Of a DNA stretch of 64,000 bases, positions 972-6,661 are shown piece by piece (the first letter of the stretch is position 1; every line of letters begins with the position of its first letter). Location of the stretch: positions 1 through 64,000 of the forward strand of contig JAPDJW010000003.1 in NCBI GenBank assembly GCA_029258885.1. The letters run 5' to 3'. Source of the DNA: Thermoproteota archaeon. GTDB lineage: Archaea > Thermoproteota > Thermoprotei > Thermofilales > B9-G17. Under the pieces are notes generated by a model that did not search any database, was not told the DNA's origin, and saw only the letters and a program-made list of their open reading frames with translations. The position numbers and the translations under genes are program-made.

Positions 972-2297
972 CTACCTGACTACGTAATACGTTTTTGCGC
1001 CTCTATTTCTCCTGCTTACTAGCCCTAGTTTCTCCAGCCTCTTTAGTCTAGCTACAACTGATGTTTTTGAAAGGCCTACCTGCTTAGCTATTTCACTACT
1101 CCTAGCTCTACCCAGCGTACTAATTACATCCAGTATCTCCCTATCCTTTTCGTCGAGCAGATCCTCTACATCTCCTTTTTTCTCGAAAATAACCTCCGTA
1201 TAGTAAGGCTGTATATTAAATTTAAGCTCGACTAGCGGATGTTCCCTACAAGCCTGTTTCATCCTATAGATGCCAGTGCCCCACTTCTCAATGTACCCTA
1301 TATCGTATAGGTACTGACATAGCAAGGGATTTCTCGGTACATGACGGGGATTATCCGGTGTAACCCCAGGCGGGAAGCTCCCTGGATTCTTTACAATAAT
1401 TTTATCGGGAATTATGAATACTTGGACTTCAGCTGGTATCAGGTAGTTCCTATGAGCTAGTGCATTAGTTATAGCCTCCCTTAATGCATCTACCGGATAC
1501 TCGTACAGCTCTATCCTCCTCCACCTAACTCCCCTTATAGGTATCCTAGCAAGGTTCATCCTAAAGTACTCCTCCAGTTCATCTATTATCCTCCATACAG
1601 GACCTTCAACGAACCTATGGTACGCTACCCTAGACATATCCCTATCCAAGAATTTTACTAGATGGATGCGTGCCCATGGAACATACTTGGAGGGATTTTC
1701 GCTGAAGAATAGCAGACCTGCGCCGCTTAGAAATTCCTCATTATTCTTCGAAACTATGATATTGAGTTTCCTAGCTATATCCAGGAAATCTCCGTAGCTC
1801 CTAACGTTCCTGACGTTCTCCCTAGTTTCAAGGAACCATTTAAGTATGTTTAAGTCTAACTCGCTTACTGGAGCGGCGCTAGGAGCTCTATCGAAGAAAT
1901 AGAGCACAGCCTCAGCGGCTCTCTCAAGCAGTTCATTTAAATCTAGAGGCCTAACGTTCCTACCCACCCTAACGTATGCGATGTACCTGAAGGTATGTAT
2001 CTTATCGCTCTTAGGAACCCTAATTAAATACACTTCCCTACCTTCAATAGTAACCCTATCCACTTTAACGCTTATATGCGGCACAATATTTAGGAGAACA
2101 TCAGAAAGCTTCTGCACTACACCCTCCTCAACCCCAACCACATTACCGTCATCATCCACGCCAATAAGTATCACGCCCCCCTCAGTATTAGCAAAAGCCA
2201 CTATATCCCTCCCTATATCTGAGGTAATTTTTCTTTTAAACTCTACAGTATCCCCCTCACCCAGCCTAATAAGCTCCAATACCTCAAGCAGGCTCAA
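972..2297 (-). CDS. Schlafen/AlbA_2 domain + HATPase_c_4 (RecG C-terminal-like) + C-terminal winged HTH protein
   Basis: GEGDTVEFKR...DIVAFANTEGGVILIGVDDDG (AlbA_2); ALREAITNALAHRNY and NPLL...L..IGYIEKWGTGI (HATPase_c_4); SEIAKQVGLSKTSVVARLKRL (wHTH). Confidence 0.85.
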   Translation of the reverse strand: MSLLEVLELIRLGEGDTVEFKRKITSDIGRDIVAFANTEGGVILIGVDDDGNVVGVEEGVVQKLSDVLLNIVPHISVKVDRVTIEGREVYLIRVPKSDKIHTFRYIAYVRVGRNVRPLDLNELLERAAEAVLYFFDRAPSAAPVSELDLNILKWFLETRENVRNVRSYGDFLDIARKLNIIVSKNNEEFLSGAGLLFFSENPSKYVPWARIHLVKFLDRDMSRVAYHRFVEGPVWRIIDELEEYFRMNLARIPIRGVRWRRIELYEYPVDALREAITNALAHRNYLIPAEVQVFIIPDKIIVKNPGSFPPGVTPDNPRHVPRNPLLCQYLYDIGYIEKWGTGIYRMKQACREHPLVELKFNIQPYYTEVIFEKKGDVEDLLDEKDREILDVISTLGRARSSEIAKQVGLSKTSVVARLKRLEKLGLVSRRNRGAKTYYVVR

Positions 2298-2474: not shown

Positions 2475-3815
2475 TCAATCTTCCGTCTCCCTTATGCAGG
2501 TAAATTTTCCTGAAACTTTAAGGATCTTCCGCCTGCCAACATATTCACTTACAACGTAGCCTAGCCTCTCAAGCTCTCTAACATGAAGATATACTGCTGT
2601 TTTCGAGATATTTAATCCCCTCTCCCTAAGGCTCTTCCAAAGTGAATAAACATGCTGAGGCTTACGAGATAATATTTCAAGGATTAACTTCTTAGTCCCT
2701 CTGATCATAACGTTTCTTTCAAGGCTAGATAGAGCCTTAACAAGAGACCTAGGATTCTTCAAACCAGCACCAGTCGCAAGCACTACAACAGTATCCTTAG
2801 AATCTATCTCACCCTCTTCAAGAAGCTTCTTAAATGCGCTAAACGCAGCTGCACCAGCTGGCTCAACAAGTATACCTTCATACCTTGCAAGATCCCTTAA
2901 TGCCTCAATAATATCCATACTACTTACGGGTACTATCCTGCCACCAGTATCTCTCGATACCTTTATTGCCTCATCACCCATATAAGGCCTCCTCTCATTT
3001 ATCTCCACAGCAATACCCTTCCTACATTCTCTACGATCAATATTCTGAAACCTGTAGGCCAACGGCGCACATACATCCTCCTGAACACCATATAGCCTAG
3101 GAAAATCATCAATTACATTTAATTCCCGGAGCTCGTGAAAGCCTTTCCAGATAGAATATATTAAGCAGCCGTTACCAACAGGAACAACTATGGAATCAGG
3201 AACCTTAAACTCTAGGTCTTCATATATTTCAAAGGATAGAGTCTTATATCCCTCGATTAGAAACGGATCAGCCGGATAAACGCTGTAGTATGGAGCTATT
3301 TTCCTTTCGTCTGAAAGTATCTCGCCACCGTAAAGCAGTATCTGATAAAGCTTCCCCCTATCTATGTGACCCCTAATCTTCACATAGCACTTTATTCCGG
3401 AGAGACTTGAATATGCACTGAGCGAAGCTGCCAGATTACCCTTAGCTTCACAGAATACACGTTTATAGCCAAAGTGTTTCAACATTGAAACTAGTACGGT
3501 TGAGCCCCTATCTATAAATGATCCTGTAGGATTCCTTGTTTCATCCTTTATATACAGCTTCTCAACCCTAAACTTACGGCTTAATCTAAAGCTACGTATA
3601 AGCGGAGTTCTTCCTTCTCCAAGCGAGTATGCTTCAGTTAAAGGCAACTTTATCATGCAGGTATATTTCCATATACCGGGCAGTTTATCATCCGGCTTAA
3701 ATCCCACCTCATCCGCGTCGTAAAGGATCCTCATGTTGCCGCCGCATATAGGACATCGCGCTAGAGGTCTCTTAATATCATCCGTAAAGCCGCATTTAAA
3801 ACATCTATACTGCAT
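2475..3815 (-). CDS. Threonine synthase-like (PLP fold II) domain lacking the catalytic Lys, fused to a C-terminal winged HTH; probable transcription regulator
   Basis: N-terminal CxxC..CxxC, SLGEGRTPL, KDETRNPTGSFIDRG (canonical SFKDRG), GNLAASLSAY, VPVGNG, EPAGAAA, TGAGLK; C-terminal KKLILEILSRKPQHVYSLWK...ISKTAVYLHVRELERLGYV wHTH. Confidence 0.85.
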   Translation of the reverse strand: MQYRCFKCGFTDDIKRPLARCPICGGNMRILYDADEVGFKPDDKLPGIWKYTCMIKLPLTEAYSLGEGRTPLIRSFRLSRKFRVEKLYIKDETRNPTGSFIDRGSTVLVSMLKHFGYKRVFCEAKGNLAASLSAYSSLSGIKCYVKIRGHIDRGKLYQILLYGGEILSDERKIAPYYSVYPADPFLIEGYKTLSFEIYEDLEFKVPDSIVVPVGNGCLIYSIWKGFHELRELNVIDDFPRLYGVQEDVCAPLAYRFQNIDRRECRKGIAVEINERRPYMGDEAIKVSRDTGGRIVPVSSMDIIEALRDLARYEGILVEPAGAAAFSAFKKLLEEGEIDSKDTVVVLATGAGLKNPRSLVKALSSLERNVMIRGTKKLILEILSRKPQHVYSLWKSLRERGLNISKTAVYLHVRELERLGYVVSEYVGRRKILKVSGKFTCIRETED

Positions 3816-3818
3816 ATG

Positions 3819-3835
3819 TATTTAAGACTTAAATA
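3819..3835. promoter_or_regulatory. Perfect palindrome TATTTAAG-A-CTTAAATA in the divergent promoter region; candidate operator
   Basis: 8-bp arms, 1-nt spacer; begins 4 nt upstream of the ThrC-wHTH start codon and ends 44 nt before the ECF S-component start. Confidence 0.55.
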
Positions 3836-3878: not shown

Positions 3879-4742
3879 ATGAGTAATCTCCACGTGTTCT
3901 GCCTTACAGTCCTGCTGTTATCGGCTGTTATGATAATTTCACTTTATGATGTCAGCGGCGGCTTCATCGAGAAGATAAGCTTAACTAGTAAAGAGAAAAA
4001 CTCGATTAGCCTGCTAGTTATATTGTTGCTTTCATCAATAGCGTTAAATCTTACCGTGATTTTCCTCGAACTACGTGAGCACAGAGGATATATTCCAACA
4101 GCTTCATTAGCACTATTCTGTACAACCGCCATATCATTCGTATACTACTTTGTGACGTTCAGGAGCCTTTATTCCTTACTTCTTCTACCTTTAATGGCCA
4201 TTTTTATAGTAGCCTATCTACGAAGTAGAAGTGAAGGTATCAGATTTTTCTCCTTGAACACTAAGGAGATATCTCTCATAGCTGTGCTATCCTCGCTTAC
4301 AGCAGTACTAACATCCGTAGTTGGATCAGTATTTCCATCACCTACGGGAGGTTATACCCATATAGGCGACACGATAATATTTCTAGCTGGACTAATGTTC
4401 GGATCCAAGGTAGGCTTCTTCACAGGATCTATTGGAGCAATGGTAGCAGACATTATAGTAGGCTATCCCAGATGGTACGTATCTATAGTAGCCCATGGGC
4501 TAGAAGGGTTTATAGCGGGCTTAGCTAAGAATAAGCGCACAGGAACTCAAGTTCTAACATTGGCTGTAGCTGGAATAGTTATGGCTTTAACATACTATAT
4601 CGTCAATATCTACATTAAAGGATATGCTCCTGCATTTATATCCTTATTAAGGGACGTGTTCGGCCAGGCTGGAGTCTCGCTAATACTATCAATACTTATA
4701 TATAAAAATATGGAGAAAACGGGTTTAATAGGCCGTATCTAA
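3879..4742 (+). CDS. ECF transporter S-component (HmpT/PdxU-like) with an extra N-terminal membrane domain
   Basis: PSPTGGYTHIGDTIIFLAGLMFGSKVGFFTGSIGAMVADIIVGY and HGLEGFIAG are typical of this S-component class; about 125 extra hydrophobic N-terminal residues. Confidence 0.8.
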   Translation: MSNLHVFCLTVLLLSAVMIISLYDVSGGFIEKISLTSKEKNSISLLVILLLSSIALNLTVIFLELREHRGYIPTASLALFCTTAISFVYYFVTFRSLYSLLLLPLMAIFIVAYLRSRSEGIRFFSLNTKEISLIAVLSSLTAVLTSVVGSVFPSPTGGYTHIGDTIIFLAGLMFGSKVGFFTGSIGAMVADIIVGYPRWYVSIVAHGLEGFIAGLAKNKRTGTQVLTLAVAGIVMALTYYIVNIYIKGYAPAFISLLRDVFGQAGVSLILSILIYKNMEKTGLIGRI

Positions 4743-6012: not shown

Positions 6013-6246
6013 ATGAAGCGGGTCAAGGTTGTTAGAAACTATCAAATCACGATTCCCTCTGAAATTAGAAAAGCTATCGGAATCGAAGTAGGTGACGTTC
6101 TTCTAATAAACGTTGTCGATAATAAAATAATATTGGAAAAGGTTAAGGATGATCTTCCAACTTTTAAGGTAGGAAAAAGGATAGAGGAGAAGGATATTGA
6201 GGAAGCACTACTTAAAGGGCTGAAGAGAAGCATAGTTGGTGGTTAA
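6013..6246 (+). CDS. vapB: AbrB/MazE/SpoVT-family antitoxin (VapB), pair 1
   Basis: KVVRNYQITIPSEIRKAIGIEVGD AbrB motif; overlaps the downstream PIN gene. Confidence 0.88.
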   Translation: MKRVKVVRNYQITIPSEIRKAIGIEVGDVLLINVVDNKIILEKVKDDLPTFKVGKRIEEKDIEEALLKGLKRSIVGG

Positions 6247-6661
6247 ATTGATAGCTGTCATTGATTCGAACGTTTACGTATATAGGGCTATAAAAGACGC
6301 AATCTATCATATTCAATCGAAAAATGTGTTAGATAAATTATCTCAGTGGCTAACGCCAAGCATAGTAATACATGAGGTGGTTTGGACATTGAATGAGCTT
6401 ATAGGCAGACAATCTACACTACTCTATGTTAAGGCGCTGCTTTCACATAGAAAGATGAATATTATCCCATTATCAAGGCAGGATATTTCTTGGAGCATAG
6501 GGAAAATCGCTGAGGAAGCGTTATCGCTGGCCAGGTACAATAATAAAATAATTTTATCTATAGCCAAAAGGAAAAATACTCCATTAGTCAGCTTTGATAA
6601 GCAACTTCTTTCTCAGGCATCAAAAGAAGGAATAGCGATAATAAATCCGTATTTAACTTAA
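6236..6661 (+). CDS. vapC: PIN-domain toxin (VapC), pair 1; third acidic residue replaced by Asn
   Basis: VIDSNV, VIHEVV, RYNNK (expected YND), SFDKQL. Confidence 0.85.
   Translation: MVVKLIAVIDSNVYVYRAIKDAIYHIQSKNVLDKLSQWLTPSIVIHEVVWTLNELIGRQSTLLYVKALLSHRKMNIIPLSRQDISWSIGKIAEEALSLARYNNKIILSIAKRKNTPLVSFDKQLLSQASKEGIAIINPYLT

Follow-up and report, generated by a model that had tools for sequence, protein, structure and literature searches.

What is the function of a protein that keeps the fold of threonine synthase (ThrC), carries an isoleucine in place of the lysine that holds pyridoxal phosphate (PLP), and ends in a DNA-binding domain? Such a protein is encoded in the DNA analyzed here, a 64,000-nucleotide stretch from a Thermoproteota archaeon (the window). 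In fold-type II PLP enzymes, the lysine in question is both the anchor of the internal aldimine and the catalytic base, and without it PLP binding can only be non-covalent and no turnover is expected. With Ile101 at the Schiff-base position, the window protein should thus form no internal aldimine and perform no catalysis. We consider it likely, on the strength of sequence comparisons, that this lysine-less fusion of a ThrC-like domain to a PadR-type winged helix-turn-helix (wHTH) is a non-covalent sensor of PLP or vitamin B6 that regulates B6 uptake; from these comparisons we infer that it binds PLP and DNA, which gene it targets, and in which sense it regulates.

Architecture of the fusion protein

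The regulator gene encodes 446 amino acids without an internal stop codon (Table 1). A first-pass annotation, made from the letters of the DNA alone, had described a motif NPTGSFIDRG with an ATA codon at the lysine position, retained PLP-site motifs, an N-terminal zinc ribbon, an otherwise intact reading frame, and a C-terminal wHTH, and each of these elements was recovered on the minus strand. The motif spans res. 95–104, its ATA codon is one substitution away from AAA, and VPVGNG, EPAGAAA, and TGAGLK are all present. The contigs of four public metagenome runs, from four studies of hydrothermal-vent and marine samples, span this stretch at ~99% identity; each contig differs from the window at 9–29 positions, none of them at 3513–3515 or between 3586 and 4111, and all four keep ATA rather than AAA.

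The enzyme part matches the PALP family at res. 64–349 (E = 4e-59), and its top structural matches in Foldseek are the ThrC structures 2ZSJ (E = 3e-29), 6CGQ, and 1UIM, with E-values of ~1e-29 and 33–36% identity. With ThrC, and specifically with its archaeal zinc-ribbon form, the regulator shares the fold, the PLP-phosphate loop, the Asn loop, the TGxGLK motif, and the ribbon itself, in which C5, C8, and C24 are invariant and C21 is nearly so in an alignment of 54 sequences; a zinc ribbon is also found in the canonical ThrC of the same genome. An AlphaFold2 model calculated from this alignment has a pLDDT of 92 and a floppy, low-confidence linker at res. 366–370. Beyond the linker, a compact module (res. 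374–445) consists of three helices (res. 374–384, 389–398, and 405–417), a β-wing (res. 421–434), and a final helix (res. 436–445). Pfam assigns res. 378–426 to PadR with 28.9 bits, above the cut-off of 27; the same assignment is precomputed for nearly all fused homologues, in which the wHTH has the signature GTK..IL..L...GY.lWK.L...vYQHL.eLe..G.

A homodimer model of the regulator associates two subunits through their ThrC-like domains in a ThrC-type interface. The model scores 0.52 against 0.00 for the best control, its runs agree in at least 67% of the contacts, and its pLDDT is 84. Of the proteins solved as pairs, 20 of 30 attain this mark, as does 1 of the 23 solved as single chains. ThrC dimers have already been solved, so the pass may reflect only the likeness to them.

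Table 1 Features of the regulator locus in the window.
Feature	Position	Strand	Description	Basis
ThrC-like/PadR fusion gene	2475..3815	(-)	446 aa; proposed B6-responsive transcription factor	ORF, Pfam, AlphaFold2
PadR-type winged helix-turn-helix, C-terminal	2478..2696	(-)	res. 374–446	PF03551, AlphaFold2
Fold-type II PLP-enzyme (ThrC-like) domain	2769..3626	(-)	res. 64–349; proposed sensor	PF00291
ATA codon	3513..3515	(-)	Ile101 at the Schiff-base lysine position	translation, four metagenome runs
Zinc ribbon, four-Cys, N-terminal	3723..3815	(-)	~res. 1–31	54-sequence alignment
Perfect 8-1-8 palindrome TATTTAAGACTTAAATA	3819..3835	(.)	17 bp; candidate operator	sequence, comparison with L005
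ECF-transporter S-component gene	3879..4742	(+)	287 aa; divergent; proposed regulated B6 importer	PF07155

Lysine loss in the fused family

Two large searches yielded 264 homologues, in which we defined a tail as a C-terminal extension of at least 45 amino acids. The Schiff-base lysine is missing in 187 of the 193 tailed homologues (replaced by Ile in 61, Leu in 32, Val in 18, Met in 8, Arg in 55, and other residues in a few) and kept in 70 of the 72 homologues without a tail. When the homologues were combined with 80 genomic loci, the lysine was absent from 247 of 262 fused proteins versus none of 75 unfused ones, which include the ThrC of the window genome. Loss of the lysine thus co-occurs with the wHTH, as had been suspected from the window sequence. 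A strain-specific lesion would require close homologues that keep the lysine, and the homologues lack it too; the replacement is a family trait.

In a tree built from the enzyme domain alone, a single branch separates all 262 fused proteins from the 75 canonical ThrCs. Two parts make up the fused clade: a hydrophobic (H) clade with 150 members, the window protein among them, and an Arg/Lys clade, which has a support of 1.0. The lysine position is occupied in the family by I/L/V/M/F/T or R, with I/L/V/M found in one clade and Arg in the other. Fifteen fused proteins retain the lysine and form two well-supported clades nested among the Arg-holders, so fusion to the wHTH and loss of the lysine are not strictly coupled. 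These clades (motif NPTNSFKDR) include the Asgard loci L064, L068, L071, L072, L077, L078, and L084, as well as L027, L047, L051, L053, and L067. Their members may be covalent sensors of PLP, like MocR proteins, or revertants from Arg to Lys, and the Arg/Lys switching within one subfamily may correspond to a shift between non-covalent and covalent modes of sensing. A fusion that preceded the loss of the lysine was considered as an order of events; the nested Lys clades fit ancestral retention and Arg-to-Lys reversal alike.

The PLP site has otherwise been maintained. Among 131 H-clade proteins, each of the residues N95, P96, T97, S99, F100, D102, R103, G126, N127, K155, Q158, E188, K191, T192, E196, G214, G216, E318, P319, T348, G349, G351, L352, and K353 is found in 86–100% of the sequences. 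If the lysine is set aside, conservation of the PLP-site motifs is about equal in the fused family and in real ThrCs, which argues for a ligand-binding pocket under selection. A specific loss of the phosphate site for O-phosphohomoserine, represented in bacterial ThrC by NSxNPxR, was also considered; the Arg of this motif is missing from the ThrC of the same genome and from the nearest canonical archaeal ThrCs, making the substrate-site comparison uninformative.

The genome encodes a separate, 385-residue ThrC with the motif MPTGSFKDRG, in addition to IlvA and TrpB2. Unlike this enzyme, the regulator has the threonine-synthase fold with Ile101 in place of the hallmark lysine of S-F-K-D-R, carries a PadR wHTH, and scores below the curated thresholds, reaching 293.9 bits against NF004170 (cut-off 421) and 142.3 bits against TIGR00260 (cut-off 167.1). 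The first-pass proposal of an enzyme-derived, ligand-sensing domain that may bind PLP or substrate non-covalently and is joined to a wHTH draws support from the lost lysine, the conserved PLP site, and the separate ThrC.

The family is systematically called threonine synthase. NF004170, a "threonine synthase" equivalog, can be aligned with the fusion over its full extent, wHTH included; it gives Arg-clade members scores of 407–415, close to the cut-off, and one protein (P0021) exceeds the TIGR00260 cut-off. The misnaming is thus built into annotation pipelines. With its 442 positions, the curated NF004170 model (PRK05638) extends across the PadR tail of the fused proteins; lysine-less or Arg-type regulators seem to be the sequences from which it was made, and the wrong enzyme name spreads with it. 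Such a label inflates threonine-pathway calls and hides B6 auxotrophy.

Genomic neighbors and distribution of B6 genes

The gene divergent from the regulator encodes an S-component (PF07155, E = 1.6e-25, 90.5 bits), which we propose to be a B6 importer of the PdxU/HmpT type. Substrates of PF07155 proteins are hard to assign by homology (PMC9997740). The sole relative by sequence in the PDB is chain S of entry 4HZU (4HZU_S, E = 1.6e-10). This protein is the "HmpT" of Lactobacillus brevis, and pyridoxamine was identified as the substrate bound to it (PMC4860826); among the residues highlighted in that study, His84 is kept in the window S-component and Glu41 is replaced by Asp.

We called and clustered open reading frames in the 80 loci plus the window. 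A PF07155 S-component adjoins the fused gene in 62 of 76 loci, nearly always within 150 bp, versus none of five loci with a canonical ThrC. Its placement follows the subfamily. In the H clade the S-component gene is upstream and divergent, as it is in the window with its 63-bp spacer; Arg-clade loci have it downstream within an operon, and in the lysine-holding Asgard clade the two genes converge. Both clades of fused proteins that keep the lysine still adjoin an S-component. In five genomes (G059, G083, G130, G137, and G266; four of one genus and one of another family), pdxS-pdxT is divergent from the regulator, and in the Arg-clade locus L039 pdxS-pdxT follows the regulator in an operon, in the slot usually taken by the S-component. 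The conserved neighbors of the family are B6 genes, not thr genes.

The phyletic distribution has the same slant. In a sample of 401 genomes from the phylum of the window organism, PdxS is found in 14 of 103 carriers (14%) and in 176 of 298 other genomes (59%), with carriers limited to high-scoring, full-length family members; the p-value of 1e-16 overstates the case, given the kinship among the genomes and the restriction of the carriers to high-scoring matches. ThiC, taken as a control for import of the thiamine precursor hydroxymethylpyrimidine (HMP), occurs in 46 of 103 carriers (45%) and 145 of 298 others (49%). The contrast between PdxS and ThiC is clear, and the phyletic pattern is B6-specific. 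Among the 14 carriers with PdxS, 5 have the regulator and pdxS-pdxT as divergent neighbors, and a PdxS search of five further carrier genomes, whose completeness is not given, returned no match. The family is widespread, with members in Thermoproteales, Bathyarchaeia, Nitrososphaeria, Aigarchaeota, Korarchaeota, and several Asgard lineages.

The window genome, 99.9% complete, contains no PdxS, no PdxT above the cut-off, and no ThiC. It also lacks a dedicated PdxK, encoding only a ThiD-ThiN fusion and a ribokinase-like protein. Judged from this gene content, the organism is probably auxotrophic for B6 and for the thiamine pyrimidine, and in the absence of a PLP synthase, uptake would be its sole source of B6.

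These data bear on what else the regulator could sense. Given its descent from ThrC and its partly kept Asn-loop and carboxylate-side motifs, the protein could respond to O-phosphohomoserine, threonine, or a related pathway ligand, with or without non-covalent PLP, and control amino-acid metabolism or transport; homoserine dehydrogenase lies no more than 3 kb away in six Arg-clade loci. We regard this as unlikely, since those six loci are probably closely related, the genes conserved beside the regulator are those for a vitamin-type ECF S-component or pdxS-pdxT, and an amino-acid signal leaves the anticorrelation with PdxS without explanation. A thiamine-precursor sensor is a very unlikely alternative. 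The S-component would then be an HmpT-type importer of HMP, with HMP-P or thiamine diphosphate as the ligand of the regulator, in keeping with the transporters annotated HmpT in PF07155 and with the missing ThiC, which on its own prevents this genome from separating B6 import from HMP import. But carriage of the regulator is unrelated to ThiC, the genes that take the transporter's place in six genomes are pdxS-pdxT rather than thi genes, the solved "HmpT" (4HZU) binds pyridoxamine (PMC4860826), and the sensor fold is a PLP fold. The thiamine reading can also draw on an AIR-synthase-like protein with weak similarity to ThiL, encoded in many loci after the S-component.

It is highly improbable that the protein has remained an enzyme that works without an internal aldimine, whether or not it depends on PLP, and that the wHTH was added to it for autoregulation. 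The pocket is highly conserved, and the two nested clades with a lysine mean that some members could be active; yet the missing residue serves as aldimine anchor and catalytic base at once, its position tolerates I/L/V/M/F/T/R, and the genome also encodes a canonical ThrC. The single substitution between the Ile and Lys codons might speak for a sequencing error or for a thrC paralogue that is decaying without function. Both are refuted by the codon identical in four independent assemblies and by the family-wide change; the frame is also intact, and purifying selection is strong over both domains. A B6-responsive regulator remains the reading that we prefer.

Several further observations concern the transporter genes. 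The genome has three PF07155 S-components and two genes for the energizing EcfT component (PF02361), both of the latter on C2. The S-component of the window is a divergent paralogue with a 125-residue N-terminal extension and four extra hydrophobic segments, and it lacks an insertion of ~75 residues typical of the family's partner; an orthologue of the usual partner is encoded elsewhere in the genome (G000:C5, L086:1261–2112), with 40–42% identity over the full length. Beside this copy lies the gene for the AIR-synthase-superfamily protein (L086:242–1249), with relatives in 23 other loci (e.g., L013:12272–13306 and L039:13045–14052). The protein resembles HypE and ThiL and falls below every NCBIfam cut-off. 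In 23 of 80 loci its gene comes after the S-component in a regulator operon, and in L039 it comes after pdxS-pdxT; the protein is a candidate B6-related enzyme and may be a salvage kinase.

Candidate operators and a proposed mechanism of B6 sensing

The spacer between the two divergent genes contains the palindrome TATTTAAGACTTAAATA, located 3 bp upstream of the regulator ATG and 43 bp upstream of the S-component ATG, downstream of an AT-rich, TATA-like stretch. Archaeal repressors typically act downstream of the TATA element. Palindrome arms of at least 8 bp arose in 325 of 20,000 shuffles of the 63-bp spacer (1.6%), and the 2.1-Mb genome contains the 15-bp core only once. The site is invariant in the four strains represented by the metagenome contigs. 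In L005, the closest sequenced relative, whose regulator is 53% identical, 20 of 22 bases of the palindrome block are the same at the same position, and the rest of the spacer is dissimilar. Further copies were considered, but matches with up to two mismatches lie mostly inside open reading frames and look like noise, and no matching site was found upstream of the orthologous S-component on C5. With one occurrence in the genome, the regulon of this organism rests on one site.

In the wider family, a different palindrome, CCTATATATAGG, has 22 occurrences with at most one mismatch in 1.26 Mb of loci. Eighteen of the 22 adjoin a regulator start, in 18 of 25 H-clade loci from both Asgard and Thermoproteota genomes; none was found at the regulator start of Arg or Lys loci. 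The same palindrome appears in the spacers between pdxS and the regulator within the hydrophobic subfamily. A shared operator for importer, synthase, and autoregulation would be expected to look like this candidate, which also overlaps TATA-like sequence. A change in the recognition helix, in which Leu replaces the family's Gln in VYQHL (P0001), was rejected as the cause of the different operator of the window, because L005 keeps the Gln and shares the window-type palindrome.

The proposed mechanism is that of a transcription factor derived from a dead ThrC paralogue. Its ThrC-like domain would keep the PLP pocket and bind PLP, or another phosphorylated B6 vitamer, reversibly, so that occupancy of the pocket would report the free B6 pool and set the DNA affinity of the dimer. 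The dimer, probably formed through the ThrC-like domain, would present its two PadR winged helices to the palindrome in the 63-bp divergent promoter region, and would thereby control both its own gene and the adjacent S-component, a putative B6 importer of PdxU/HmpT type. Negative feedback, with the ligand-bound form repressing uptake, would be the most likely logic and the simplest for an auxotroph; an apo-activator would be the alternative. PadR-family regulators usually leave DNA upon ligand binding, a behavior with which simple feedback repression fits poorly.

Parts of this design are known from other regulators. In the bacterial MocR proteins PdxR, GabR, and TauR, the fold of a PLP enzyme has likewise been reused as the sensor of a transcription factor, with palindromic or repeat operators near divergent promoters, as proposed here; PdxR has pdxST as its target, and the targets of some MocR regulators are genes for membrane or B6 transport (PMC5320631). 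MocR proteins place an N-terminal GntR wHTH before an aminotransferase-like domain of fold-type I that keeps its lysine and forms an aldimine, whereas the regulator places a C-terminal PadR wHTH after a fold-type II sensor without the lysine. The two are analogous, not homologous. Similarly, the PadR family (PF03551) shares the wHTH signature, a predicted dimer, and a palindromic candidate operator with the regulator, but classical members are short (~110–180 aa), with an N-terminal wHTH and a small C-terminal dimerization helix. In the regulator, the wHTH follows an enzyme-derived domain of 360 residues, which would supply both dimerization and ligand binding.

Closer to home, the archaeal regulators ThiR (with a ThiN domain) and RbkR (with a riboflavin kinase domain) reportedly join the fold of a vitamin enzyme to a DNA-binding domain and control genes for synthesis or uptake of their own vitamin. 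They differ in vitamin, folds, and DNA-binding domain, and their sensors come from an enzyme of the same pathway, whereas the sensor described here comes from a user of the cofactor. Riboswitches are rare in Archaea, and to our knowledge the control of B6 homeostasis in this domain is virtually unexplored. For prokaryotes in general, little is known of B6 transporters (PMC9997740). Our literature search, whose coverage excluded most subscription journals, found no description of the lysine-less ThrC-PadR family, a large archaeal family that is apparently undescribed. Whether archaeal B6 sensing evolved independently of PdxR, by way of a ThrC-derived pseudoenzyme fused to PadR with a regulon of importer, pdxST (where a genome has it), and the AIR-synthase-like protein, is in our judgment evenly poised. 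The family offers a clean natural case in which an enzyme that relied on a cofactor became a sensor for it. It could also help to predict which uncultured archaea depend on B6, and it provides, from thermophiles, a candidate scaffold for PLP biosensors.

A few observations concern the surroundings of the locus. DNA nearly identical to the window is present in hydrothermal-vent and marine-sediment metagenomes from ~12 studies, and no RNA datasets covering the regulator stretch are listed. Between the regulator stop codon and the next gene, a direct repeat of ~27 bp, ATCGTTAAGYTATTATAGGTTTACG, is found in two copies (~2310–2440). The gene directly downstream of the regulator (972–2297, minus strand) encodes a 441-residue protein with Schlafen AlbA_2 and HATPase_c_4 domains and a C-terminal wHTH, which looks like an ATP-dependent DNA-binding or defence-like regulator. 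On the plus strand, positions 6013–6661 hold the overlapping genes for an AbrB/MazE-type antitoxin (77 aa) and a PIN-domain toxin (141 aa), a VapBC-like pair.
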